This document shows positions 3,805-60,089 of a stretch of DNA of 64,000 nucleotides, one piece after another. The stretch is from assembly GCA_964016885.1 (NCBI GenBank), contig OZ024743.1, forward strand, positions 38,440,001 to 38,504,000. The letters run 5' to 3'. The notes below the pieces were generated by a model. That model had not been told where the DNA came from, did not search any database, and saw only the letters and a program-made list of their open reading frames with translations. The DNA is from Eledone cirrhosa (Eukaryota). The translations under genes and the position numbers were made by a program. Every line of letters starts with the position of its first letter. The first letter of the stretch is position 1.

Positions 3805-4137
3805 ATCATATATAATTCTGAACTCGATATATTTGATATATTTCACATAGTGTAAGATAAAGTTGATTAAGTTAGATATACACATATACTTGAGAAGAAT
3901 GTTTCATACATTCAAAACATAATCACAATCATTAGGTATTCAGTGATACATGAGATATAACTACATTTAAATTGAAGACATTTAGATAATCTGGAATGGC
4001 TATACATGTTATCACTCTTTTGATAGTAACTATGCTTTAATTTTATTGTAGGCCTTCTGGTGTTTACCTGAATAATGTCTGGCCTCGGGTGGTTAATTTT
4101 ATAAAGAATATTTACTAAGTACACTCCGCATGTATTA
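3805..4137. repeat. Left arm of a ~330-bp inverted repeat (partner 6819-7151)
   Basis: Highly similar to the reverse complement of 6819-7151, e.g. tttactaagtacactccgcatgtatta / taatacatgcggagtgtacttagtaaa. Confidence 0.9.
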
Positions 4138-4191
4138 TATATATTTTTGTTTATTTTTTATATTATTTCGTCTTATTTTGTAATTTGATAT

Positions 4192-4221
<30 letters not shown>

Positions 4222-4225
<4 letters not shown>

Positions 4226-4854
4226 AGTATGTATACGTACATACATATATGTATACAGACATACAGTAGTATGTATATATATATATAAACATTCATGCAG
4301 ACATACATATATGTACGTATGGATTCACCGAACATTTATTATAATGCTCGGTGTCTTTGTAAACAAACATACCCGTATTAAGCCGTAGTGTATAGTAACC
4401 ATCGTTGCTCGTTTGTTCAACACTGACAAAGTTGTTGTCGGTGCACCCGGGCGTTTAACCCACTCGATATGCAAATTGGGCTACACAGCTGTTAATATGC
4501 ATGAGGAAAGTATATACTTTCAGACGTTCAATCATCTGGCAGGAAAGTATACGTTGCTGACGATAGCTAATAAACTTGAAACTAGTACAGCGTTCCGTTG
4601 TCAGTGTTGAACAAACGAGCAACGATGGTTGCTAGACATTACGGCTTAATACGGGATGTTTGTTTACAAACACCCCGAGCATTATAATAAATGTTCGATG
4701 AATCCATACGTACATGTATATATGTATGCGTGTATGTATATATGTATACATACTACTGTACGTCTGTATACATATATGTATGTACGTATACATACTTATA
4801 TTTAAGTAACAGCCGTACTAAGAGTGGGAAATGAAATTTCGTTTCATTTTTTCC

Positions 4855-4860
<6 letters not shown>
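4222..4860 (+). mobile_element. Non-coding hammerhead-bearing fold-back element, family H1, copy 1
   Basis: Inverted arms at ~4222-4428 and ~4598-4800, with an HHR at 4551-4593. Homologous to 12580-13300 and 39355-39836; flanked by (TA)n. Confidence 0.85.
4551..4593 (+). ncRNA. Type I minimal hammerhead motif (family H1)
   Basis: acgttg CTGACGA tagctaataaactt GAAA ctag TA cagcgt; stem I acgttg/cagcgt (one G-U pair), palindromic stem III ACTAGT, GUA cleavage triplet. Stem II is decayed in this copy. Confidence 0.75.
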
Positions 4861-4925
<65 letters not shown>

Positions 4926-4926
<1 letters not shown>

Positions 4927-5966: not shown

Positions 5967-6107
<141 letters not shown>

Positions 6108-6263
6108 GAAACACACAGATACATGCGGACACACACATATATACATGAATGCATCCGCACCCAACTGTGAGTTAAGGGTGCCAACTTCACCGATGTTGCT
6201 CAATGAATGACTGGGACAGACCAATTCAGTTTGAACCAGACTGAACCAGTATCAGAGTTAAAA

Positions 6264-6769
6264 ATACATTATGAAGAGAGAAGAAACATTTAGATATAAT
6301 TAGTAATAAAATGTATCATACCTAAACTGTTCCTAAATTCCTCGACTACGTAGTTTCGTGGCATAAACAAAAACAATATATCAAAGATATAGAGTCCTTG
6401 CGAGGTCTGCCGACTTATCAAGAGGATACCTCATTTTACTAGTCTCAAGAACGCGTCTACACGACGTGAGAAAGAATCCCAAAAGGCGGAGGGGGAGATA
6501 GTCACGCGATATAACGGTCGAGAAACAGAGCTAAGCCTCTTATAACCACGAAGAAAATACCACGGAGGCGGAGGGGGTATTCATATCGAGGCCATATCTG
6601 TTTCTCGACCGTTATATCGCGTGACTATCTCCCCCTCCGCCTTTTGGGATTCTTTCTCACGTCGTGTAGACGCGTTCTTGAGACTAGTAAAATGAGGTAT
6701 CCTCTTGATAAGTTTAGGTATGATACATTTTATTACTAATTATATCTAAATGTTTCTTCTCTCTTCATA

Positions 6770-6775
<6 letters not shown>
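6264..6775. mobile_element. Fold-back element (family H2) with an extended hammerhead in the left arm
   Basis: 6264-6529 is the reverse complement of 6597-6775 apart from an ~85-bp segment missing from the right arm; that segment holds most of the HHR. Confidence 0.85.
6339..6426 (-). ncRNA. Type I hammerhead, U3-A8 core variant with a long loop II
   Basis: Minus strand: tcctc TTGATAA gtcggca [44 nt] tgccac GAAA ctacgtag TC gagga; perfect 5-bp stem I, palindromic stem III, GUC triplet. Confidence 0.75.
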
Positions 6776-6813
<38 letters not shown>

Positions 6814-6818
6814 ATCTT

Positions 6819-7151
6819 TAATACATGCGGAGTGTACTTAGTAAATATTCTTTATAAAATTAACCACCCGAGGCCAGATATTATTCAGGTAAACACCAGA
6901 AGGCCTACAATACAATTAAAGCATAGTTAATATCAAAAGAGTGATAACATGTATAGCCATTCCAGATTATCTAAATGTCTTCAATTTAGATGTAGTTATA
7001 TCTCATGTATTACTGAATACCTAATGATTGTGATTTGGTTTTGAATATATGAGAAAGTCTTCTCAAGTATATGTGTATATCTAACTAATTCAACATTATC
7101 TTACAATATGTGAAATATATCAAATATATGGTGTTCAGAATTATATATGAT
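6819..7151. repeat. Right arm of the inverted repeat (partner 3805-4137)
   Basis: Reverse complement of 3805-4137. Confidence 0.9.
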
Positions 7152-7602
7152 GCAGTCGGGTCATCAAACATAGAGACGTCAGAATGTCTGTGTATCAATT
7201 TAAGTACTAACATATCACATATTATTTAATACAATTTCTTAGAAAATGCAGTATTATTGAGTTATGGAAACCTAACTGAGATATTGTGGATTACATGTGA
7301 TGTATGTTATATGGTATATATTATATGTATTATGTGTTATGTATGATGTCGACGTTTCGGTCCAGGTTAGTCAAACTTTTTCTCAGTTCAGTCTTTTTCG
7401 TGGCTATGGTCACTGCGGCCCTTCTATCGGTCGCTATCTTCATTTTGCAAAGCTGTCTAAACGTAATGTTATATCTCTAGGGTTATATACCCTATCCGAG
7501 TGCTTAGCTGCACAACGAGACTGCATTTGTTAGCTTGGCTGCAACCAAGGCTTCATTGCTTCTGTACTAAATTTTGTATATATATATATGTATATATAAA
7601 CA

Positions 7603-7657
<55 letters not shown>

Positions 7658-7663
<6 letters not shown>

Positions 7664-8600
7664 ATACTTTGGGAGGGTCATGTTGCCAATAAGAAACACA
7701 CGCACCAGTAGTTTCACTTCAATTTATTATATATTTATAAATTTATAAATTTACAAATTTACAAACCTATACATTTCTGGTTGGTTGGTTGGTTCCACAA
7801 CCAGATAGTTGTTTATATATATAGTCATAGTCCTTTCGTCACACACTCTGTGACCTCTTCAGTGACTGGGGATTCCTTTCTTCGTTTCTGTGCCTTTCCT
7901 TTCTTCTATCCTAGGCCATTTTGTTTCTGTGTGTGTGTTGTGTGCTCAGTTTGCGCATGCGCCACATCCGGGTGTCTGTGTGTGTTTGTGTTCATTTTTC
8001 TATTTTTCTATTTATATTTTTCTATTTGTTTATTTATTTATTTATTTATTGTTGGTTGGTTGTTTGTTCTATGTGTGTGTGTGTTTTCATTTTGTCCTGT
8101 GTGTGTTTTCATTTTGTGTGTGTTTTCAATTGTAAGTTGTTTGTTCTATGTGTGTGTGTGTTTTCATTTTGTCCTTAATTGTAAGTTGTGATGTTGCTGT
8201 TCCACTCATATTTTCTATTTAATTTTGGTTTTAATTCTTTTATGCTTACTGCCTCTGTAATTTGCCTAAACATTGCGTCTTTTCTGTGTGTGGATTCTAT
8301 TTTTATTTCTATGCTCTCTAATCTACCCCTGTGTTCTATCTTAGCATGTTGGTAGAGCACAGATGATTCTTTATTATCTTGGAGGTCTCGCCAGTGTTCA
8401 TTTATTCGTTCCCCTATACTACGAGCTGTCTCACCTATGTACACTATATTTTTGTTTCTAGATTGTCCTTCAGTACATCTTATGCTATACACTACATTTC
8501 TAGTTTTACAGTTAATATGGGGGCTTATTTTACAGGTTATACATTTCTTATCTATACATGAGGGTCTTTGGAACGGGTATGTCTTGCTAATAAGTGTTTT
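7658..8600 (-). mobile_element. Penelope-like element 3' fragment (GIY-YIG) plus pLTR
   Basis: ORF 8175-8492 reads YSIRCTEGQ...VYIGETARSIGERINEH...RQITEAVSIKELKPKLNRKYEWN. The pLTR terminus tattgttatactttgggagggtcatg abuts (TA)n. Confidence 0.92.
7823..7867 (-). ncRNA. Type I minimal hammerhead in PLE pLTR (well formed)
   Basis: Minus strand: agtca CTGAAGA g gtcaca-gagtg-tgtgac GAAA ggac TA tgact; perfect stems I and II. Confidence 0.85.
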
Positions 8601-9199
8601 CCGTAAAAAGACTTATATAGAGGTAACTGGGAAAATAATGCAGTAAATTAGTAATTAGGATGAGATTAGCTAAAATAAGAACAATTAAAATACAGGGAAT
8701 TACACTTAGGTAAAGTACCCACCGAAACCAGTGTGTTTGTTAAAAGTTTGGTCAACATAGCGAGGACGGCCTGAGCAAATGGGCGTACTTTGAGCATAGA
8801 CAACATCTGAGGCTGCACTTGGCGACTAGGTTGATTTCAGATTTGTGGTGTTCCTAAACTACTCCTTGATGATACCTCACTTCTATTGGGGAATTCTTTT
8901 ATATTTAATGGTAATTATCACTTCTTTTCATTATTTTTACATGTGTTTATGGAATGTCCAGTCCTCGTTCTTTTGTATTCTCTTTTGTGGTTCGGTTCTT
9001 GTATCCAGTGAAGAAAGAATTATTGTTAAATAATATCAACATATTGATAAATTCATATCTATAATTCACTATGTGATGCTCTTCAATTTAAACAGACGTT
9101 TGCCAATAATGTTGGCAAAACTTGAGATATTTATCTCTTTCTAAATTGTATGAAGTTAGCAAAGTTATAAAGTAATGTGTTTTAAGATATTCATATTAA

Positions 9200-12705: not shown

Positions 12706-12802
<97 letters not shown>

Positions 12803-13300
12803 ACGTATGGGTTTACCGAACAGTTATAATGTTCGGTTTGTTTGTAAACAAACAGCCCGAATTAAGCCGTACAGTATTCGGCAACCATCGTTGCCCTTTT
12901 GTTCAACACTGACAAAGGAGCGAAGAACAAGTTTCTAACTTATTAGCTGTCATCAGCACCGTATACCTTCCTGTCAATCGGTTGAACGTTTGAAAGTATA
13001 TACTTTCCTTATGCATATTAACGGGTGAGCCGAATTACGCCGTACAGTGCTCGGCAACCATCCTCGCCCTTTTGTTCAACACTGACACAGGAACGATGTA
13101 CTAGTTTCAAGCTTATTATCTATCGTCAGCGTCGTATACCTTTCTGTTGGGCTGTTTGTTTACGAACAAACCGAACATTGTAATAAATATCAATGTTCGG
13201 TAAACCCAAACGTACATATATATATATGTGTGCATGTATGTATATATATACACACTACTGTACGCCTCTACACTTATATGTATGTACATATACATACTTA
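12580..13300 (-). mobile_element. Family H1 element, copy 2, with two tandem hammerheads and an inverted terminal piece
   Basis: Reverse-complement homology to 4430-4860. HHRs at 12920-12962 and 13093-13135; inverted segment at ~13150-13300. Confidence 0.85.
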
Positions 13301-20441: not shown

Positions 20442-20975
20442 TTAGGGAGAAGTGTTTAGAAGGGGTCCGTATTTGTTAATAAAGTGAGATTCCTTGCTGA
20501 TGCGCTGGGTGTGGGTGGCATTATCTTTAAATTTGTAGAGGGGAAAGATTCTGAAGTTGGGATGATTTTTGGCGGCACATGTATCAATGTGTTCACTCAG
20601 TGGTATTTTCCTGTATTCCCGCATTTTAATTTGGGATCTATGGACAGTCATGCGTTGGCGGAGGCTGTTTTTGGTCTGGCCTATGTATAGTTCTCGACAA
20701 CCTGAGCAAGTTAATACATATATTAGATTTTCTGATGCGCATGTGAAATTGTGTTTTACTATAAAACATTGTCCTTGTTTGAAATAGAATTCCGAACCCT
20801 CTATTAGGTTGATGCATATGCCACAGTTGGGTCTATCGCATTTTTTACTCTGGGTTTCGTTGTTGTGGTTGGCAGTACTTTGGCATGCGTTAGGATGTTT
20901 TTCATTGATTTAGATTCTCTTTTGCTCTTTATGATATCGTGTGTTCGTAGGATTTGTTCATTGTATGGTCCTTTT
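20442..20975 (-). mobile_element. PLE fragment of a second clade: Cys-rich linker plus GIY-YIG endonuclease
   Basis: With one frameshift: ...KCDRPNCGICINLIEG...HNFTCASENLIYVLTCSGCRELYIGQTKNSLRQRMTVHRSQI...KESHFINKYGPLLN. Confidence 0.9.
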
Positions 20976-21103: not shown

Positions 21104-21144
21104 CACCTACGTACGTTTCGCCCGAAAGGGCTTCTCAAAGGCAT
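21104..21144 (-). ncRNA. Hammerhead motif, U3-A8 variant
   Basis: Minus strand: atgcct TTGAGAA gccc-tttc-gggc GAAA cgtacg TA ggtg; perfect stem II, palindromic stem III, imperfect stem I. Confidence 0.6.
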
Positions 21145-28822: not shown

Positions 28823-28962
28823 ATTAGAAAGTGAGGTTTTTTTTACAAAATGAAAAATAACCGAGGTGTCCTACACGAGTGGAAGTATAAAGAAAAAGAG
28901 ATGAAATCGAAAATGCAACTGAAGTCTTATTTTAAAAAAAATATATATATATTTATTTGGTT

Positions 28963-29000
28963 CCTTTACCGGTTTCGCAGTTCTTCTGCTTTTCAAAAGG
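28963..29000 (-). ncRNA. Type I minimal hammerhead, U3-A8 variant
   Basis: Minus strand: cctt TTGAAAA gcag-aagaa-ctgc GAAA ccgg TA aagg. Confidence 0.8.
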
Positions 29001-29070
29001 TGAGTTGAGATGGAGCGTCTGTGGTTTTTCTCACATGTGAGAACAACCACAGACCCTCCATCTCAACTCA

Positions 29071-29108
29071 CCTTTTGAAAAGCAGAAGAACTGCGAAACC
29101 GGTAAAGG
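29071..29108 (+). ncRNA. Type I minimal hammerhead, U3-A8 variant
   Basis: cctt TTGAAAA gcag-aagaa-ctgc GAAA ccgg TA aagg; perfect stems I and II, palindromic stem III ACCGGT, GUA triplet. Confidence 0.8.
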
Positions 29109-29179
29109 AACCAAATAAATATATATATTTTTTAAAAAAATAAGACTTCAGTTGCATTTTCGATTTCATCTCTTTTTTT

Positions 29180-29259
<80 letters not shown>

Positions 29260-30244: not shown

Positions 30245-30670
30245 ATCAAAAGATGGTTAAAAGAGTTCCATGTATTTTATTATGCGCATTTCATAAACAA
30301 ATATCATCATGCAATAACATTTGTGTTTTCATCAGATAAAATAGGAAGACATGATATGAAGGTTTAAAAACACTTGTGGATAGTGCAGTTTTAAATCAAC
30401 ATATGAAAATTAGTTTTAGATTGATGTGTGATATGGGGGGGGGGATGAAAAAGAGGAGGAGATGAGAGTAAAAAGTGGAGGGGGAGGAGTATAATGAGGA
30501 AGGATGAGATAGGAGGAGAGATGGGTGATAGAGAGAGAGAGATAGCTTTTATAACTGAGAATAATATATTGTTTTACATAGAGAGGTTGAAAAACCGTTG
30601 GAAGATAATGTATAAATTAAAAGAATTTGAAAATTAACGAAGAGAAAAATAATGTAAAGTTAAGGTTTGT

Positions 30671-33640: not shown

Positions 33641-36600
33641 CTTGGTTGTCCATCATAAACGATAATGTCATCTTCTTTATTTTAGTTCCCGTCTGCCATG
33701 GGCACCAAGTTGGCTGTGGAGGCCGATCCTTGACTTGCAGGTCCGTGAACAGTAGGAGCAAGTGAAGAGACCGGATTCGCTTGGGGCAGCTGTTGGTGGC
33801 TTTCTCCTACTTTCACGGGCCTCAGTGACCTCTGTCCGTCTCTTATCTTGAAAAGAGTCTTTGGCACCTCTGGTAAGGGCTCGCCACTCAGTCCTGTCCT
33901 GAGCATGAGACTCGAGTTGCTTTGGCGCGATTCCAGTGTTGTTGATACTGAACTTCACGCAGTTTTTGAACCTCTTGAGAGGCCTGCCCCGCTTTCGTTT
34001 CCCAGAACAGAGTTCTCCATACATCAGTTGCTTCGGAAGCCTGTGATCGTCCATCCAGATGACAAGTCCCACCCATCAAAGTTGGCTCTTCAGTATCATA
34101 GCTTCGACACTGGTTGTCTCAGCCATGTCAAGAACTTCGATGTTGAAGACCTTGTCCTGCCATTTGATGTTCATGATTGACCGCAGGCTGCGCATGTGGA
34201 ACCGTTCTAACTGCTTCAGGTGCCTTCTGTACAGGATCCCTGTCTCACATCCGTAGAGGAGGCTGGTGAGAACAACGGCCCTGTACACATTGAGCTTGGT
34301 GGACTGCCTGATGTGCTGGTTCAGGACGCATGTCCTCAGGCGGCCGAGGGCTTGACTGAACTTGCAGATTCTGGCGTCTATCTCCTTGTCAAGACTTCCA
34401 TCGCTGCTGATGACACTGCCGAGGTACTTGAAGTCGTCCACCATCTTTAGCTGGGTGCTTCCGATGGAGATGGAAGGAGGGTGGGAGATGGAGGCAGGTG
34501 CAGGCTGGAACAGGACCTCAGTTTTGCCAAGGATAATTGAGACCGAAGTGGCAGGAGGCCTCCGCGAACTTGTTGACGATGAGTTGGAGGTCAGACTCCA
34601 TGTGGGACATGAGGGCACAGACGTCAGCAAAAACTGCCTCCAGGACGATTTCTTGGCTGTCAGGCGCCGCAGGTCAAACAGCGAGCCGTCCAGTTTGTAT
34701 CGCAGAAACACTCCATGCTCGAGGTCCCTGACGGCATGATTGAGCACGCTGGTGAAGAAGGGGTTGAAGAGGACGGGAGCAGCACGCCTCCTTGCTTGAC
34801 GCCGTTGGTGATTCGGAACGGCTCGGTTGCCTCTCCGCCAGAGCGCACCTGCCCGGTCACGTCCTCATGGAGCCGTATCAGGTTCACAAACTTTGTCGGG
34901 CATCCAAACTTCGACAGGATCGACCAGATGGCTTCCTTGTTGGAAGTGTCGAATGCCTTCGTGAATTCTATGAAGACGGCAAAGAGGTCCATGTTCTGCT
35001 CGACACACCACTCCTGCACCTGGCGTACAAGACGATCATGTCTATCGTGCTGCGGTGTGGGCGGAACCCACACTGGGTCTCAGGAATGTTGTTATCCGAG
35101 ATGTTGGCAATGAGGGTGTTGAGCATGACCAGAGCCAGGACCTTCCCGGCGATGGATAGGAAAGAAATGCCCCGATAGTTGGGCACGGCTGAAGTCTTTG
35201 CGCACCTCTTCTTCCTCCCATATGCTGACGAGGAGGGTGTGGGAGGCCCCCAGGGTAGCTGGACCGGCCGATTTGAAGATCTCGGCAGGAATCCCGTCTT
35301 TCCAAGGGGCCTTTCCTGAGCTGGGCTGGTTGATTGCCTTCGTGACTTCATCCAACGTAGGTCGAGGCTGCCGACTACGGGCTTCTGTGGGACCTGGTCG
35401 AGGGCGGCAGGATCGACAGTGGAGGGCCTGTTGAGCAGGTTGTTGAAGTGCTCTTCCCAGCTCGAGTTGATGCTGCTCTTCTCCTTCAGCAGGATCGAGC
35501 CGTCAGCAGGAAGCAGCGGTGTGGTGACAGGCTTGGGGCGTCCGTAGACGCACCCGATGGCGCTGAAGAACGTCTTGGAGTTCTTTGTATCATCGTATCT
35601 CTCGATTTCTTCGGCCTTCTTTTCCCACCACTTGTCCTGCATTCTGCGTAGCGCTGCTTGGGTCTGCCTCTGGAGGTGCGTGAAGCGGTTGCGCTACGAG
35701 GTGGAGAAGCAATCATTCTGCCACTCAATGAAAGCCCTCCTCTTCTCGTCCAGGAGTTGACTGATGGGCTTATCTTTTTCATCAAACCAGTCCTGTTGGA
35801 CACTCTTCCTCGGCCCGATGGTTGCCTTGGCTGACTATGTCACCAGCGAACTGAACTGGTCCGACTGTTGAGTTGGGGGTCCGGTCAGTAGTCCAAGGGC
35901 AGTCAGCGGGCCGTCCAGATGCTCCGCGAACGCATCACGATGCTCTGGCTGCTTGATCGTGCGTCGTCGAAAGCTGGCTTACAGTATTTCGGAGTCTTGC
36001 GATGCGTCGGGGTGATGTGCAGTGACAGGATGGTCCTGACAAGGTGATGGTCAGTCCAAAACTCTGCACTACGCATGGACCTGGTGATTCCGACCTCACG
36101 AATGTCGCTCTTGCGGCATATGCCGAAGTCAATCAGATGCCACTCTTTGCATCTGGGGTGCATCCATGTTGTTTTCAACTTGTCTGCCTGCGGAACAGTG
36201 TGCTGGTGATGGTGAGGTCGTTCTCGGCGCAGAAACTCAACAGTATGAAGCCGTTAGAGTTCACCTTCCCTGTGCCGTGAGTTCCCAGCACGCCTCTCCA
36301 GTTGCTGCTGTCAGACCCGATACTTGCGTTGAAGTCCCCCAGAAGGATGGGTTTATCGCTTTGGGGGTGGGGTGGGGGGGTACGACCTTAACGAGTGTGT
36401 TGTGTTCCCCGTAGAAAGCGTCCTTTGATGCATCGCTGCTGGTGAGAGTGGGGGCCTACGCGCTGATGACTGTGACATACCGACATGGGTCGAGGGGGAG
36501 GCGGAGCTTCATCAGCCGCTCACTCACCACAGGTGTTGGGATGTCTGGTAGCTGCTTGCAGATTGAAGTCCTGATGGCCAGCCCTACCCAGTGGATTCTG

Positions 36601-37600
36601 TCCCTCGTCCTTTGCATTGCCCTTCCAGAAGGTGTAGCCTCCTTTCAGTTCTGGACCTGGTCCTTCCTCGGCAAGTCAAGTTTCGCTGAGGGCGATCCGG
36701 TAGCGAGCTAATTCCCTTATGAGGGCAATTTTTCTCTCTGGCGTCAATGTTTCCCTATCCATGTGGGTGCGCACATTCCATGCGCCAAGAATCAAGTTCT
36801 TATTTCTGTGATGTTGGTTTCGACCGCTTGCAAGGGAAAAATCGCCAGCCACGGTAGACTGGCCGGCTTTGCGTGGGACGAGCAATTGGTTAGGGCTTAT
36901 TTTATCACCCCTCCTCTCGTGCGAGGGTTAGCAGTGCTCCCCTGAAAAGGGCTGCTCTGTCGCTCGGTGGAATGCCTGTTCTTCTCTGTCATCCCAGGGT
37001 CAGAAGGAGAACGACTTGCTCATCCGGGCTGCCCACGTGTGGGTTTGAGACTGGCAAATCCCAGAGGTTACCTCCGCCTCTCGCCCATTGCTGCAGGGCT
37101 TTGGGAGTGCACACTAAAGAAGAAACTTGTGCAGGAAAGGTTTATAGTGGGCGGGCCAGTGCAGACTGACGGGCCCACTCACTCGGCGGTTGAAGCCAGA
37201 ATCCGGTGGTACGGAGAACCGTCACGACCAGGGACTTCCTTGGCTGCAGTGGATGGCCACAACCTCTGTAGTGCCTTGCCGTGCCCTAGTGCTCCACACC
37301 GCTTGCTGACGCCGCCTTCGTGTTTGTTGGGACGATCTTGTCCTCCTCCACCCACTCCGCCGTGTTCCGTCTTCGCATGCAGGGGAAGGCATCCCCTATC
37401 TAACTCACCGGGGGGTTTCAGACCCATCCGGCTAACCTCAACCTGGTTTGGCCCGCCAGCCAAGGCGGTTTACCAGGGTGTGGCCGCTGTCGCATGCTAC
37501 AGCTTCTTGGGGCCACAGGTGAGAGCTGAGTGTCAGGTGGGAACCATTGCAGGACGAGCTGTCCTGAAAAGGGCATGGCTAGCCTCCCCCCTTACATAGG
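33640..37600 (-). mobile_element. Near full-length RTE-clade LINE (APE + RT + C-terminal C2H2-like), frameshifted
   Basis: APE motifs: LILGAWNVRT, ELARYRIALSET, TTWMHPRCKEWHLID, WTDHHLV. RT motifs: NYRGISFLSIAGKVLA, PETQCGFRPHRSTIDM, FTKAFD, NGVKQG, FKYLGS, LLYGCET. C-terminus: RLPKQLMYGEL...GRPLKRFK, CSYCSRTCKSRIGLHSQ. About 0.7 kb of 5' UTR. Confidence 0.96.
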
Positions 37601-39355: not shown

Positions 39356-39833
39356 TAAGTATGTACACGTACATACGTATATGTATACACACGTATGTAT
39401 ATATATATATATATACATACATTTTTGCCATTTATCGTTTTCGGTACGCCCGGCCGACTAAATCACTCGATATGCAAATTAGGCTGCTCAGCCGTTAATA
39501 TGCATAAGGAAAGTATATACTTTCAAACGTTCAATCATCTGACAGTAAGGTATATGGTGCTGATGACAGCTAATAAGCTAGAAACTAGTTCTTCGTTCCT
39601 TTGTCAGTCTTGAACAAAATGGCAACGATGGTTGCCGACAATGTACGGCTAATATTTCGAGCATTTACAAACAAACCGAGCATTATAATAAATGTTCGGT
39701 AAAACCCTACTTACATATATATATATATATGTGTGCATGTATGAATGCATATACATACTACTGTACGTATACATACTTATATTTAAGTATCAGCCGAACT
39801 AAGAGTGAGAAATGAAATTTCATTTTTACCATT

Positions 39834-39836
<3 letters not shown>
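39355..39836 (+). mobile_element. Family H1 element, copy 3, HHR at 39554-39596
   Basis: Homologous to 4430-4860; atggtg CTGATGA c agct-aata-agct a GAAA ctag TT cttcgt; (TA)n on both sides. Confidence 0.85.
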
Positions 39837-39875
<39 letters not shown>

Positions 39876-39893
39876 GACTAGAAATAGATTTGC

Positions 39894-39981
<88 letters not shown>

Positions 39982-44322: not shown

Positions 44323-44593
44323 CGATGAATTAGTTTTGCGAGGTTTTTTATATGAAATCGTGTGTCGAAACAGATATTGTTATATTTGGGGAGGGTCATA
44401 TTTGCGTAATATTGCCAGAATTAATAACAGAACACACTCACTGTTTGGTTGGTTTTCGCTTCTCGCTGTCTTTTATATATATATATCTGCGATCTAACTT
44501 ACTCGGTCCTCAATGTTGCCATTGACTGACCGGCGGTCAAAAATAATACTGATACAATATAGACACAAACACATATATATAGTTTACATAATT

Positions 44594-44636
44594 TACATAA
44601 ATCTTTCGTTGCACATCTGCAACATCGTCAGTGGTG
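44594..44636 (-). ncRNA. Type I hammerhead in PLE pLTR (other copies at 47792-47834 and 48321-48364)
   Basis: Minus strand: cacca CTGACGA t gttgca-gatg-tgcaac GAAA gatt TA tg; core and stem II identical in all three copies. Confidence 0.75.
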
Positions 44637-44896
44637 TTATATTCATTGTTCCTCCTGTTGTGTTGTATGTCTACGCCATTTTTTTTTTTTGTTCAGTCTG
44701 TCTATATATTTATTTATTTATTTGCTTGTTTGTTTATCTTATTTTATTTTGTCTTCTTTGCGCATGCGTTTGCGTGTGTGTATAGTGTGATGTGTGACTA
44801 GTGTGTATAGTGTTGTGTCTGCTGGGTGACTAGTGTGTGTTTATGTGCTTGTGTATGTATTTATTTATCTTATTTTATTTAATTTTATTTACTTAT

Positions 44897-46348
44897 TTAT
44901 ACTTCTCTTAGGTCAGTGTTGTTTGTTTGGGTGTTGTTGTTGTTCCACTCATTCTTTCTGTTTAGCTTTGGTCTTCTAATTTCTATTTCACTGGCCTCTC
45001 TGATTTGCCTATCTGCTGGGTCATTCCTATGTTTAGATATTATTCTAATTTCTATGTTGTCTATGTTACCGTCATGTTGTTGTCTAGCATGTTCGTATAG
45101 TACTGACCCGTTTTTTCGTCCTTTTAGTTCCCCCCAGTGTTGGTCTATCCTTTCACCTATGCTACGAGCTGTCTCACCTATGTATGTTGTTGTCATGTTT
45201 CTGCAAGTACCCTCTGTACATCTTATGCTATAGACTACGTTTCTAGTGTTACAGTTTATCCGGGGGTTCACCTTACAAATGATACATTTCCTATTGGTAC
45301 AGTGGGTTTTCTTAAAAGGGTAGGTTTTGCTGATCAGGGATTTTATGGTGGTTCCTGGCTTTTCTACCACCTTTATTTTTAAGTGGGTTTTTCTCAGGGC
45401 CTTTCTACACTGGTTAGCTAATTTCCCTCCAGGGGTGGCGTCCACAAACATGACACTCTGATATCTCTGGTTGTCGTACCATGATGTGGCCTTCTCTATC
45501 TTATGTCTAGTCCTATCTAAGCTATTCCATGATTTGCTCCTGTATAGTGGGCAAATTCCTTTCATGTCCAGTTCTATGAGGGTCTTATACTTTTCCATGG
45601 CTCCTTCGTATACTCTGACTCTGTCTCTTTGGTTGTAGCCAGAGAACTGCATGCGGTTGATGAAGTGTTGGATGTGTCCTTCCATTTCTGTTGGGTCGCA
45701 CATGCTGGACACATTCTTCATCACTCGTACCAAATCTGCGATCAGAATATTAAACTTAGCACTACTGGACATTGCTGAGTTTTTGAGTATCAGGTATTTG
45801 GAGGCCATGGGTTTAGCATAGTGTGAGTGGAGAATTTGGGCTCTCTCGTCTATAGTGTTAATCCAGAGTTCTGTGTCTAATACAGGTAGTCTATTGTTAG
45901 GGTGTTTGGAAGGGAAGTCTATAGTTACAGTTATACTCTGGTGTATGGAATTAGCTATCTGCTGGATGCTTTCCATCGTGCTACGTTCTAAATCAAACTT
46001 GTTAGTGCTCTCTAGTGGGGGTGTTCTTATAACTATATTGATATCGTCTACATAACGAGAGTACATGATGAGGTCTATGGAGCTTTCATTAAGGAGATCT
46101 TTAAGTCTCCTTTCCCACCATACCATGAAAAGGTTGGCAACATCACCAGCTATGCTGACGCCGATGGCTGCTCCCTCATTTTGGGTGTAGATTTTCTCAT
46201 TGAACTTAAATATGTGGCCCTTTAGGGTAGTTTTGATACTAGCCCCTATTGCATGTGCGACCATTTTTCTTACCTGATCAGTGTTTTGGGGGGTCCGTAT
46301 AGCTTTGGTCCACCCAATCCACCTTCCTATGGGAGTCTTTTTAGCCAT
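44897..46348 (-). CDS. Penelope-like RT (C-terminal part) - thumb - Cys linker - GIY-YIG endonuclease, 483-aa open segment
   Basis: Uninterrupted ORF with RYVDD, SGY, CTNRKCIIC...NC, VVYSIRC and YIGETAR...R...H...REA...PKLN. It continues upstream in another frame (46354-46569). Confidence 0.9.
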   Translation of the reverse strand: MAKKTPIGRWIGWTKAIRTPQNTDQVRKMVAHAIGASIKTTLKGHIFKFNEKIYTQNEGAAIGVSIAGDVANLFMVWWERRLKDLLNESSIDLIMYSRYVDDINIVIRTPPLESTNKFDLERSTMESIQQIANSIHQSITVTIDFPSKHPNNRLPVLDTELWINTIDERAQILHSHYAKPMASKYLILKNSAMSSSAKFNILIADLVRVMKNVSSMCDPTEMEGHIQHFINRMQFSGYNQRDRVRVYEGAMEKYKTLIELDMKGICPLYRSKSWNSLDRTRHKIEKATSWYDNQRYQSVMFVDATPGGKLANQCRKALRKTHLKIKVVEKPGTTIKSLISKTYPFKKTHCTNRKCIICKVNPRINCNTRNVVYSIRCTEGTCRNMTTTYIGETARSIGERIDQHWGELKGRKNGSVLYEHARQQHDGNIDNIEIRIISKHRNDPADRQIREASEIEIRRPKLNRKNEWNNNNTQTNNTDLREV

Positions 46349-47280
46349 TGAGGTTATGGTGGGGGTCTACCTCTTATAGGTCTACTAGGGCAGAAACATC
46401 TAAGGTCATGGCTGTCTAGGTAGTCAGTGTCGTAGGTAAGTCTAAGTAGGAGGCCCAGTTCGTCTGTGTCGACGTCGCAGAACTCCACCTCACACTCAAT
46501 GATCATCTCCACACATCTTTTCACAGCAAAATCAATGTTAATGGATGGGTACAGTGACACCACATCCATGCTGCCTATTATGCATAATATGCTAAGATTT
46601 TCATAATTATAAATTTATTATATTCTCATAAATTTTGTAGATGAATCATTTACATAAACTGCAACGTTGACTGCTTTGGAAAACGAAACTAAATGTTTCA
46701 AATAATCAGAATTAATCCGTCAACAGGAAAGACGAAATTTCGTAGAAAATGGATGTTGGAAGTTTAGAAAAAAATGTTGATATAAAAGTTTGTGATAAAG
46801 GTCCTGCGACCCGGTGCTACACCTAGCCGTTTTTGCCTGCGGCATTTAATATCTAGAGTATAAAAACGTGAACATAACAATCTCCAAGCTGTTTCAATAT
46901 CCTCTAGTTTGCTCAGGGAGTATTCTGAATACATGAGTGCATATACATCATTGTCAACAGCAAACGGATATAATATAATAATCAGAAATGTTTGAACAAT
47001 CATATTGGTTCAATTGATTAGAAAGCAATTCAACTAATTAATAATGTTGGCCTAAGAAATCATTAATGAGATCAAAATATTCCTGCGAGTTAATTAAATT
47101 AATATTTAAGTTAATCCAAATAATCATCGTGTTAGTTTAATTTATTAGTAGTGTTAATTAGTTGTGTTAGTTTAATAACTAAATCATGCTGGTTTAATCA
47201 ATTAGTCGCATTAGTTTAATCAATATTTCATGATATTTGAATTAATTAAACTTATCTTATTGGGTATATATATTTTTTTA

Positions 47281-47541: not shown

Positions 47542-50385
47542 TGAATTAGTTTTGCGAGGTTTTTGATATGAAATCGTGAGTCGAAAGAAATATTGTTATA
47601 TTTGGGGAGGGTCATAGTTGTGTAATAATATTGCCAGAATTAATAACAGAACACACTCACTGTTTGGTTGGTTTTCGCTTCTGTGTCTTCTATATCGGTT
47701 AATTTAATTTATTCGGTCCTCAATGTTGCCATTGACTGACCAACGGTCAAAAATACAGATACAATATAGACACAAACACATATATATAGTCTATCAAATA
47801 ATTTCGTTGCACATCTGCAACATCGTCAGTGGTGCTATTATGTTTCCTCCCGTTGCAATGTATGCTTACGCCATCTTTATTTAGTCTGTTTATTTATTTA
47901 TTTATTTGTTTATTTTTTAAATTTGTTTGTCTTCTCTGCGCATGCATTTGTGTGTGTGTATAGTGTTTTGTTTGATGTGTGTTCTTGTTTGGGTGACTGT
48001 GTATTGGTTAATATATTCTATCTTAGTTTACTAGTGTGTGTTTATATTTGTTTGTTGTTATTGTGCTTGTGTATGCATTTATTTATTGTTTATTTATCGT
48101 GTTTCGAAACAAATATTGTTATACTTGGGGAGGGTCATATTTGTGTAATATTGCCAGAATTAATACCAGCACACACTCACTGTTTGGTTGGTTTTAGCTT
48201 CTCGCTTCTGTGTCTTTTATATCGGTAATCTAACTTACTCGGTCCTCAATGTTGCCATTGACTGACCGACGGTCAAAAATAATACAGATACAATATAGAC
48301 ACAAACACATATATATAGTTTATCATAAATCTTTCGTTGCACATCTGCAACATCGTCAGTGGTGCTATATTTTCCTCCTGTTTTATTGTATGTCTACGCC
48401 ATTTTTTTTCAGTCTGTCTATATATTTATTTATTTATTTGCGTGTTTGTTTATTTTATTTTGTCTTCTTTGCGCATGCGTTTGCGTGTGTGTATAGTGTT
48501 TTGTTTGCTGTGTGATGGGTGACTAGTGTGTGTTTATGTGCTTGTTGTTATTGTGCTTGTGTATGTATTTATTTATTTATTTATTTATTTTATTTTATTT
48601 ACTTATTTATACTTCTCTTAGGTCAGTGTTGTTTGTTTGGGTGTTGTTATTCCATTCATTTTTTCTGTTTAGCCTTGGCATTCTAAGTTCTATTTCGCTG
48701 GCCTCTCTGATTTGCCTACCTGCTGGGTCTTTTCTATGTTTAGATATTATTCTAACTTCTATGTTGTCTATGTTACCGTTGTGTTGTTGTCGGGCATGTT
48801 TGTATAGTACTAAACCGTTTTTTCGTCCTTTTAGTTCCCCCAGTGTTGGTCTATCATTTCACCTATGCTACGAGCTGTCCCGCCTATGTATGTTGTTTTC
48901 ATGTTTCTGCAAGTACCCTCTGCACATCTTATGCTATAGAATACGTTATCCGGGGTTTACTCTACATATGATATATTTCCTATTAGTACAGTGGGTTTTC
49001 TTAAAAGGGTAGGTTTTGCTAATCAGGGATTTTATGGTGGTACCTGGCTTTTCTACCACCTTAATCTTTAAGTGGGTCTTTCTCAGGGCCTTTCTACACT
49101 GGTTAGATAATTTCCCTCCAGGGGTAGCGTCCACAAACATGACACTCTGGTATCTCTGGTCGTCGAAACATGAGGTGGCTTTCCCCATCTTATGTCTAGT
49201 CCTATCTAAGCTATTCTATGATTTGCTCCTGTATAATGGGCAACTTCCTTTCATGTCCAGTTCTATGAGGGTCTTATACTTCTCCGTGGCTCCTTCGTAT
49301 ACTCTGATTCTGTCTCTTAGGTTGTAGCCAGAGAACTGCATGCGGTTGATGAAGTGTTGGATGTGTCTTTCCATTTCTGTTGGGTCGCACATGCGGTAAA
49401 CGTTCTTCATCACATGTGCCAAGTCTGCGATCAGAATATTAAACTTAGCACTACTAGACATTGCTGAGTTTTTGAGTATCAGGTATTTGGAGGGCCATGG
49501 GTTTAGCATAGTGTGAGTGGAGAATTTGGGCTCTCTCGTCTATAGTGTTAATCCAGAGTTCCATGTCTAATACAGGTAGTATATTGTTAAGGTGTTTGGA
49601 AGGGTAGTCGATAGTTACAGTTATACTCTGGTGTATGGAAGTAGCTATCTGCTGGATGCTTTCCATTGTGCTACGTTCTAAATCAAACTTGTTAGTGCTC
49701 TAACTTGTGGGGATCTCCGTGTTACTATATTGATGTCGTCTACGTAACGAGAGTACATGATGAGGTCTATGGAGCTCTCATCAAGGAGATCTTTGAGTCT
49801 CCTTTCCCACCATACCACAAAAAGGTTGGCAACGTCACCAGCTATGCTGACGCCAATGTCTGCTCCATCATTTTGGGTGTAGATCTTCTCGTTGAACTTG
49901 AATATGTGGCCCTTTAGGGTAGTTTTGATACTAGCCCCTATTGCGTGTGCGACCATGTTTCTTACCTGGTCATTGTTTTGGGGGGTCCGTATAGCTTTGG
50001 TCCATGAATTCTATCTTCCCATGGGAGTCGTTTTTGCCATTGAGGTTATGGTGGGGGATCTACCTCTTATGTTCTACTTGGGCAGAAACGTCTAAGGACA
50101 TGGCTGTCTAGGTAGTCAGTGTCGTAGGTAAGTCTAAGTAGGAGGCCCAGTTCGTCTGTGTTGACGTCGCAGAACTCCACCTCACTCTCAATGATCATCT
50201 CCACACATTTTTTCACAGCAAAATCAATGTTAATGGATGGGTACAGTGATACCACATCCATACTGCCTATTATGCTGTTGAATAGGTTCCTGTTTTTGTT
50301 GCACACACTGATTCTCCTCAGGAGGTCCTCTGTACTGTCACATACATCTGGAGACATCTTGATTATGGGCGTATAACCATTGAGA
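47542..50385 (-). mobile_element. Penelope-like retroelement, copy 2 (multiple frameshifts) with two tandem pLTRs
   Basis: ORF fragments 50067-50423, 49678-49956, 49454-49666, 49216-49509 and 48946-49188 closely match copy 1. pLTRs at ~47542-48100 and ~48100-48610 each carry the HHR. Confidence 0.95.
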
Positions 50386-53849: not shown

Positions 53850-55082
53850 CATACAGTATGTTAATAGACCAAAAGAAATTGCCGTTTTAATTCAAACATC
53901 ACCATGTTCACCTCTATGTCTTTTCTTCATTCAGTGTAGCAGTGCTCATGTGTATATATTTCTGACCATATCACAATTCGCACTGTGATATGTTAATAGC
54001 ATTGCATTTATGATAATGTCTTCTCACATAGATTCTAATTATATATTTAACAATTGTCAAATTATATTCTTAAAATGTTTAAATTAAGCCAAGGATCGAA
54101 CGTTCGATATTGGTTTTTCTTAAACTGATATTTTACTAACTCTGTAAGGTTTTGTCTATAGGTGTGTGTATGTTGGGGCTATGTATGTGTTTGATATATG
54201 TTTAAGTATGAGAGATTGTATGTGTGATTTAGACGAACCGTGCTCGGTGCCTTGATTAACATGATTGAGCATAATGAGCAAAATCCACTAAATCTGAGCT
54301 CAGATGGCTTCATGAACTTCCTGATTAAACACTGACTTACTGTCAACCACCCCATTTAACAGAGAGGTTGGAAACTATCGCGCTAAACAGTTCCCACACG
54401 ATTACGATGAACTCTGTTCAGGAAGTTCTCTAAATTTGGATGTAACAATTCCTGCATAGAAAATTCTAACTTCCTCGTCGACCCTCCCTTCCCACTTTAT
54501 CTTGCAGGTCAAGATGTGCTTCACTGCATTTTGTGCGGGCTTTAGATAAGTAGATTGTGATGAGTTGACAAGTGAACCATTCTCTTTAAACGAACATCCA
54601 GCATACATACGAAGAAATTATAGGCAATAGAAAATCAATTACTGATTTTCGACCTGGAGTCTTCGTATACGAAGTTTAATTATGGTGATCTTTGTGCTGG
54701 AAAAAGGGCGTTCATAGTAGAGAGCCTGTTACTAGAACAGCGTTTACTTTCACATTTATTGTGTGGGTCTCTCTCCTTCCTATCATTCTTTAGCGTATCA
54801 GATGTTCTTTCGCAGGCGAGATGGTAACAGCGTCCATATCTAAGATATAGGAGGACTATGGGATTAAATGGGAATCTGATTTTAGATCAGCAATTAATGT
54901 ATTCTGGTACACCATTAACTGACGTATTAATAAAATATCCTTCTCCATTCCAATTATGTTTGCTCTCACCAGAGATACATATCCCTGGGGAGTAGTAGTA
55001 AGAAGTGCGTGAGCAACCAACGTGTATGATAAAGTGTTTAACCAACTCTGTGCCAACATGTGTACCTACATAATTGATATAT

Positions 55083-55293
55083 ATGTGAGAAAAACCACAG
55101 ACCCTCCATCTCAACTCACCTTTTGAAAAGCAGAAGAACTGCGAAACCGGTAAAGGAACCAAATAAATATATATCATTTAAAAAAAAATAAGACTCCAGT
55201 TGCATTTTCGATTTCATCTCTTTTTCTTTATACTTTCACTCGTGTAGGACACCTCGGTTATTTTTCATTTTGTAAAAAAAACCTCACTTTCTA

Positions 55294-59126: not shown

Positions 59127-60089
59127 ATATTGTTATGCTTTGGGAGGGTCATGTTGCCAATAAGAAACACACGCACCAGCTGTTTTCACTTCAATGTATT
59201 ATAAATTAAAATTATAAATTTAGGAATTTATAAATTTACGGTTGGTTGGTTGGTTCCACAACCAGACGAGACGATTGTTCATATATTGTCAAAGTGCTTT
59301 CGTCACATATTATGTGACTTCTTTAGTGACTGGGGATTCTTTTCTTTGCTTTCGTGCCTCTCTTTTTTTCTGTCCTACGCCATCTTGTTTTTGCTGTGTG
59401 CTTACTTTGCGCATGTGTTTCATCCGGATGTATGTGTGTGTTTATATTTGTTTATTTATTTATTTATTTACATGTTACTGGTTAATTGTTTGTTCTATGT
59501 GTGTGTGTTTTTCATTTTGTCCTTAATCGTAAGTTGTGATGTTGCTATTCTATTCATGTTTTCTATTTAATTTTGTTTGGAGTTCATTTATGTTTATTGC
59601 CTTTAAATACGCAATGTTTAGACAAATCACAGAGGCTTTAAACATAAATAAACTCCAACCAAAATTAAATAGAAAACATGAATGGAAGAGCAACATCAAA
59701 CCTTAAAATTAAGGATAACATTAAAACACACACACACACATAGAACAAACAACCAACCAGTAACATGTAAATAAACAAATAAATAAATAAATATAAACAC
59801 ACACAGACACACGGATCTAACACATGCGCAAACTAAGCACACAACAAAAACAAGATGGCGTGGGACCGAACAAAGGAGAGGCGCAAAAGCAAAGAAAAGA
59901 ATCCCCAGTCACTGAAGAGGTCACAGAATGTGTGACCAAAGAACTTTGACAATATAAGAACAATCGTCTCGTCTGGTTGTGGAACCAACCAACCGGACAT
60001 TTATGAATTCCTAAATTTATGAATTGAAGTGAAAGCATCCAGTGCGTGTTTCTTATTGGCAACATGACCCTCCTAAAGCATAACAATAT
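59127..60089. mobile_element. Inverted pair of PLE pLTRs (7658 family), each with a mutated hammerhead (59287-59331 minus, 59907-59950 plus)
   Basis: The two halves are diverged reverse complements, joined through the last GIY-YIG codons (AMFRQITEALNINKLQPKLNRKHEW). The cores read CTAAAGA...GAAA and CTGAAGA...CAAA. Confidence 0.9.

Follow-up and report, generated by a model that had tools for sequence, protein, structure and literature searches.

The question raised by positions 6105 to 6775 of the 64,000-nt stretch of Eledone cirrhosa DNA analysed here (the window) is why a hammerhead ribozyme motif stands in one arm of an inverted repeat and is largely deleted from the other, and what kind of element, self-cutting or not, it belongs to. 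The motif is probably a type I hammerhead, its helix III palindromic and its helix II 57 nt long and unbranched, carried by a 591-nt non-coding unit arranged head to tail, likely a non-autonomous Penelope-type retroelement (a non-LTR retrozyme), and predicted to cut as a dimer.

The motif lies on the minus strand at 6339..6426, with predicted cleavage between 6344 and 6343. Stem I consists of five perfect Watson-Crick pairs between 6426-6422 (5' strand) and 6343-6339 (3' strand), and is followed by the core UUGAUAA (6421-6415), which is of the U3-A8 type. The base of helix II (6414-6408 with 6363-6358) has six base pairs, one bulged C (6412) and the G10.1-C11.1 pair, its two strands being separated by an insert of 44 nt (6407-6364); GAAA occupies 6357-6354, C17 is at 6344, and the site is GUC. 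Every conserved position is present (Y3 U4 G5 A6 N7 R8 A9; G12 A13 A14; A15.1-U16.1; H17), with positions 3 and 8 paired, and three helices surround the core, with the ends of the motif in stem I, as in type I hammerheads, helix III having 3 bp in a monomer and 10 bp in a dimer. A descriptor fitted to the motif has one match in the 64-kb window and none in 60 block-wise dinucleotide shuffles, and a looser descriptor has five real matches, again with none in the 60 shuffles. Two still looser descriptors have 5 and 7 real matches, compared with 2 and 10 summed across all 60 shuffles, and 100 whole-window shuffles gave a similar result. The motif exceeds chance, and the U3-A8 hammerhead with a GUC site that the earlier note had read from the letters is borne out, its core and stems being located on the minus strand with no match in the 60 shuffled sequences.

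The same note had predicted that short-loop descriptors would overlook such a variant, which proved correct: the published minimal descriptor requires CUGANGA and a loop 2 of 3-10 nt (PMC4209133), and Rfam reports no hammerhead family among the seven matches up to E 10 for 6150-6760, nor any hammerhead among the 150 matches listed for the whole window. The Rfam matches to miRNAs, with scores below gathering, are fold-back or microsatellite noise. The 44-nt loop 2 lies outside the 3-10 nt of the Penelope-type descriptor, a limit that is a search setting and no biological definition. The label "atypical" was overstated for two features that are in print for hammerheads of Penelope-like elements (Cervera and de la Pena 2014, PMC4209133), where the U3-A8 variant has about 1,300 matches in Schistosoma mansoni and a bulge in helix II is known from Drosophila virilis. 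The type I topology and short helix I are likewise common to those hammerheads and the present motif, which differs from the ones described there in having no extra nucleotide after A9 and no coding element attached.

What sets the motif apart is helix II, which is predicted from folding z-scores and pair probabilities to extend over 57 nt (6358..6414, minus strand) as 6 bp with the bulge, a 6x3 internal loop, 8 bp including three G-U pairs, a 2x2 loop, 6 bp and a 3-nt loop. The 44-nt insert is predicted to be a single unbranched 14-bp hairpin (pair probabilities 0.96-1.0) connected to helix II by the 6x3 internal loop, and it folds with a z-score of -4.02 on the ribozyme strand versus -1.66 on the opposite strand. 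A branched loop II is 10.7 kcal/mol worse (-10.0 branched versus -20.7 unbranched). The two small hairpins formerly suggested for the insert do not both form in the model: the cct/agg hairpin has a probability of 0.00, and atatc/gatat is the tip of the one unbranched hairpin. The longest loop 2 among the 56 rows of Fig. S3 in PMC4209133 is 9 nt, a comparison that is partly circular because the descriptor limit was 10, and the "long" helices described for viral type I motifs have just 6-8 bp. No helix II this long was found in the literature covered, works on small Penelope-associated variants and on Terminons lying outside that coverage. As judged from the sequence records, the long helix II is the form of the family and no private insertion, because the record of an independent sequencing run (X1, below) contains 6130-6593 unchanged within the 591-nt unit. 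Elsewhere in the window, at 30274-30343 (minus strand), with a (TA)n tract some 30 nt away, a C3-G8 hammerhead-like motif has an 8-bp stem I, an 8-nt palindrome and a poorly paired helix II base; this second motif (at 30335), with its 36-nt helix II region containing a 12-bp hairpin, suggests that long-helix forms are not rare in the source genome.

Helix III (6345..6354, minus strand) is a 10-nt palindrome. In the monomer it amounts to 3 bp with a 4-nt loop, at a pair probability of 0.06-0.08, so that of the two stems previously called perfect, stem I stands and helix III does not. When two copies are folded together, a double hammerhead is the minimum-energy structure (-57.3 kcal/mol versus 2 x -21.8), in which the two molecules share a 10-bp helix III, neither core is paired and G10.1-C11.1 is present. 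Neither this palindromic, dimer-type helix III nor the 591-nt unit had been recognised in the earlier note. A palindromic helix III that permits a dimer is a feature of Penelope-type hammerheads, and palindromes of up to 10 nt appear in the Aedes and Saccoglossus rows of Fig. S3 of PMC4209133. The logic of the dimer has also been published: hammerheads of Penelope-like elements occur as opposite-strand pairs 100-700 bp apart and are predicted to act as dimers (PMC4209133). By the same folding model, cleavage of the present motif is likely to occur only in pairs. Stem I has a probability of 0.00 in all 16 monomer folds with at least 60 nt of upstream sequence, under a model that admits neither pseudoknots nor dimers, and of 0.00-0.74 in eight folds with 10 nt upstream. 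A hairpin downstream of the cleavage site (6264..6343, minus strand; z -4.44 on this strand versus -0.29 on the other) is predicted to capture the 3' strand of stem I once it is transcribed. The competing folds upstream and downstream would thus count against easy activity as a monomer.

These folds also bear on whether the motif cuts at all. The element could be as described and the motif not self-cutting, either requiring the assistance of a protein or persisting as a passive relic, with the long helix II as part of a generally hairpin-rich fold. This is doubtful but deserves some weight: stem I is absent from the predicted folds in longer contexts, competing hairpins flank it on both sides, and the motif of an anole element cuts only with protein and is dispensable in vitro, insertion there proceeding without cleavage (PMC11167929). 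The Penelope-type motifs in print cut weakly, and of nine predicted Xenopus dimers one was cut in vitro and eight were not (bioRxiv 10.64898/2026.07.22.740005). Against this, all core positions, G10.1-C11.1, stem I and the perfect 10-nt palindrome are intact, and the best fold of the dimer is the active arrangement.

A possible means of releasing stem I is provided by the five nucleotides directly 5' of it (6428..6432, minus strand), which are a perfect 5-bp complement of 6406-6402 in the internal loop of helix II, and which could alternatively pair with the 5' strand of stem I itself, in an inhibitory hairpin that the fold shows. The match has a chance of 0.023-0.029 under two nulls and was noticed by eye before testing, and the pseudoknot between 6432-6428 and 6406-6402 is best taken as a possible candidate and a lead. 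If formed, it would brace helices I and II and free stem I, and such a brace would be the helix I-helix II contact that Penelope-type motifs are said to lack. In the hammerheads surveyed by Perreault et al. 2011 (PMC3088659), some of which are also naturally U3-A8, a loop of helix II is likewise predicted to form Watson-Crick pairs with sequence beside stem I in about 40% of representatives, by pseudoknot statistics from which repetitive type I motifs were excluded. In the present motif helix II is far longer, and the predicted partner would be one of its internal loops.

The unit that carries the motif was delimited with the help of sequencing runs. The long copy (6105..6593, minus strand) comprises about 482-489 of 591 nt, is 5'-truncated at 6593, and has its 3' end between 6105 and 6129, abutting (TA)n. 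Run X1, from an independent study, contains a 621-letter record that reads from 6387 to 6130, continues through 127 other letters, and then reads from 6593 to 6358, with 0 differences; the record starts and ends on the same 30 letters and so closes a cycle of 591 nt, which may represent either head-to-tail DNA or a circle. Run X2, which may come from the source of the window itself, contains one 577-letter record identical over 6130-6593, followed by other sequence. Because these records include 6130-6593, the segment 6130-6263 is part of the element, and because both diverge from the window after 6593, the local copy is cut short at that point. There is no ATG open reading frame longer than 28 aa in the 489 nt in view, nor any tRNA, LTR or tRNA primer site in the 489 of 591 nt examined. 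The long copy is highly self-paired, folding with a z-score of -5.45 on the ribozyme strand versus -2.52 on the other, with 31 G-U among 161 pairs.

In being non-coding, a few hundred bp long and, as judged from the X1 cycle, arranged head to tail with a single type I hammerhead per unit, in its GC content below 50%, strong self-pairing and co-occurrence with Penelope-like elements, and in having neither LTR nor tRNA primer site over the 489 nt, the unit resembles the metazoan non-LTR retrozymes (Cervera and de la Pena 2020, PMC7229834; Li, Clavereau and Pollet 2026, bioRxiv 10.64898/2026.07.22.740005). Units of the latter, which are akin to the pLTRs of Penelope elements, measure 51-972 bp according to the preprint, a range that includes 591 nt, which is larger than the circles of 170-400 nt tested in 2020 (PMC7229834). 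The present element differs from these retrozymes in that its motif is Penelope-type rather than canonical, that it forms an inverted pair rather than an array, and that its RNA circles are putative; neither a tandem copy nor a target-site duplication is demonstrable at this locus. An alternative is that the stretch is the pLTR region of an autonomous Penelope-like element, the 591-nt cycle being a local tandem of such ends. The architecture is indeed that of 5'-truncated insertions of coding elements (PMC8557442), and 127 letters of the unit lie outside full view, but a 591-nt cycle leaves no room for a reading frame. The unit, moreover, lacks the frame and the match expected of the terminal repeat of an element encoding reverse transcriptase and GIY-YIG endonuclease: no frame was found in it, and it does not match the coding elements of the window, its sole shared word being an 11-mer held in common with another non-coding repeat. 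We regard the pLTR origin as unlikely.

The 11-mer occurs identically at 4125-4135, 6119-6129 and 6821-6831, one occurrence being close to where the long copy ends and the other two at the inner ends of an older pair of inverted repeats (3805-4143 and 6813-7151, 94%). With six matches at no more than one mismatch versus 1.13 expected, it is possibly a shared 3' signal.

Among 24 listed sequencing-run rows, 20 contain part of 6264-6600, and 14 rows contain at least half the words; the 20 represent 16 studies and 17 organism codes from 2022-2025, and none of those listed is recorded as RNA. Three of the 20 and one added raw run were checked at the level of sequence over 6130-6597, which yielded five records. 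Two of these, from run X15, are 151 letters long, have a depth of 2-2.6 and a loose end in each, and look like single chimeric read pairs. A search of 1,938 million letters of the raw run X22 returned 0 reads and constitutes no real test of presence, and a second X1 record (35 letters, five differences, TG-rich end) was discarded as a simple-repeat match. The sequenced copies differ by 0, 0, 0 and 1 letters and are too alike to show covariation. Library carry-over would explain the listing under many organisms as well as horizontal spread would, and no conclusion on distribution is drawn. Exact-pattern scans found two loci in metagenome contigs and one in viral contigs, all chance matches with the rest of the motif missing; gapped-pattern scans found none in genome contigs and none in viral contigs. 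By these scans there are no true relatives in the three sequence collections.

At the locus, the 5' ends of two copies are joined head to head by a 3-nt filler (6594..6596), X1 and X2 departing from the window after 6593 and the short copy starting at 6597. The short inverted copy (6597..6775, plus strand) corresponds to positions 6529 to 6264 of the unit. The 3' ends of both copies point outward and run into (TA)n, the flanking target microsatellites being (AC)52(AT)16 on the left (5969..6104) and (TA)12 followed by (TG)n on the right (6773..6813). The short arm has an 87-bp deletion (6326-6412, or shifted by up to 3) at 6711-6713, with the 3-nt AGT microhomology already remarked upon, and its end lies 15-18 nt to the 3' side of the predicted cut. 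The arms are otherwise 100% identical over 117 + 65 nt, so the opposite arm is as near-perfect as the earlier note had it, but it has not lost the whole segment: 6413-6426, comprising the 5' strand of stem I and the first core strand (U3-A9), is retained.

This remnant bears on the proposal, also made earlier, that in a minus-strand fold-back transcript the ribozyme would be looped out and free to fold. In the predicted fold-back RNA, the stretch 6432-6417 is base-paired to the opposite arm at P 0.99-1.0, and because the 5' strand of stem I and U3-U7 are locked in this way, the ribozyme is predicted to be blocked, not freed. It is very improbable that the deletion was favoured for leaving an active ribozyme looped out: most of the antisense copy is indeed gone, and helix II is still folded in the loop, but beyond the lock just described, the locking arm is transcribed first, and the deletion, whose recurrence the earlier note had raised as a question, is found in none of the five sequencing records. 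The arm junction is likewise found in none of them, and X2 continues past 6593 into other sequence. These absences, together with the 100% identity of the arms, would be consistent with the short arm and its deletion being a fold-back artefact of assembly or amplification, with the long copy alone being genomic. We consider such an artefact improbable, since contigs drop rare forms, so that absence proves little, the short arm ends independently in (TA)n, as in other families, and elsewhere in the window the arms of inverted pairs have diverged to 90-95%.

Taking the inverted pair as genomic, the deletion looks like a one-off copying accident and no regulatory device. The preferred cause, suggested by two cases only, is that the reverse transcriptase jumped from one AGU word to another, possibly as it approached the 5' end of a template that had cleaved itself; repair of DNA within a palindrome is an equally good fit. 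In another inverted pair, at 4218-4804, the short arm begins about 8 nt beyond the cleavage site in the 3' direction, hence without the motif; one-sided motifs therefore arise in the window without any special deletion. A spliced intron was rejected as an explanation of the gap, none of the four equivalent placements having GT...AG ends on either strand, by eye. The locus is likely a dead-end copy, with a single intact motif that would be locked in any transcript spanning both arms.

The window as a whole is microsatellite-rich (about 34% GC) and contains three further hammerhead-bearing non-coding families that end in (TA)n, two of which form inverted pairs. A second family (28824-29183 and 55066-55292) has a minimal U3-A8 hammerhead with a 6-nt palindrome and a GUA site, at 28996 (-), 29075 (+) and 55123 (+); at 28824-29183 one long and one short arm are joined head to head, with a motif in both arms and (TA)n at both ends. 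A third family (4218-4926, 12712-13150 and 39437-39909) has a C3-G8 hammerhead with a 6-nt palindrome and a z-score of -6.3 on the ribozyme strand, and includes an inverted pair, a partial tandem (12857-13147) and diverged copies usable for covariation. At 21119 (-), 13615 (-), 50546 (-), 7358 (-) and 58253 (-)/58314 (+) there are further hammerhead-like cores, partial or decayed, whose helix III is palindromic.

Penelope-type elements with reverse transcriptase and GIY-YIG frames, in partial tandem or inverted arrangements, are found at 44357-46583, 47573-50275, 7577-8612, 869-1748 and 59127-60089. The first includes a 489-aa open stretch (44897-46366) with a weak Pfam match to reverse transcriptase and a GIY-YIG motif recognised by eye; GIY-YIG matches occur at 8175-8612 and 20442-20909, and four of the seven frames scanned have a Pfam match. 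A descriptor search of the 3' regions of these coding elements found no clear hammerhead. Broken GC-rich frames at 33677-37600 (-) resemble, by eye, a LINE-type reverse transcriptase, and the frame at 34076-34864 has no Pfam match.

The geometry of the insertion, together with the co-occurrence of Penelope-type elements, fits mobilisation by a Penelope-like element. By analogy with published systems, head-to-tail copies would be transcribed, and neighbouring motifs would pair through helix III into a double hammerhead that would cut after GUC, giving monomers of 591 nt that may close into circles. Acting in trans, a Penelope-like reverse transcriptase/GIY-YIG protein would insert copies of the RNA into a (TA)n tract by priming on both strands of the target. 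This would leave two 5'-truncated copies, joined head to head, whose 3' ends lie in the microsatellite; the short one would likely have lost its 87 nt by an AGU-to-AGU jump during copying, or in later DNA repair. Insertions of Penelope-like elements usually have an inverted 5'-truncated copy and a bias towards microsatellites (Craig et al. 2021, PMC8557442). In the anole element, the enzyme uses AT-rich targets, primes inside the RNA and extends both strands of the target (PMC11167929). The present pair shares with the insertions described in these papers an inverted truncated copy at the 5' end, outward 3' ends, a microsatellite or AT-rich target, and ends that are internal to the RNA and not at the ribozyme cut. 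It differs in that its 3' ends are about 150 nt apart, compared with a tail of 30-40 nt, and in that one arm is internally deleted.

The U3-A8 core, the 10-nt palindromic helix III, the inverted truncated copies and the TA-microsatellite targets are thus already in print for Penelope-like elements and non-LTR retrozymes, and the bulged helix II for Penelope-type hammerheads. A more speculative interpretation, to which we give little credence at present, is that the helix II of a Penelope-type hammerhead became long and that its internal loop forms the pseudoknot, which acts both as a brace and as the release of stem I, so that a young, circular retroelement of 591 nt would contain its own switch; the motif would then belong to a class of animal hammerheads with long helices that descriptors miss, possibly one shared unchanged between species. 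Counts of animal hammerheads rest on descriptors with a short loop 2, and long-helix forms are missed, by Rfam as well. Here one such form is fixed in a young family, whose small, homogeneous unit, with a clear prediction of a dimer and a testable pseudoknot, offers a convenient substrate for finding out what Penelope-type hammerheads do.
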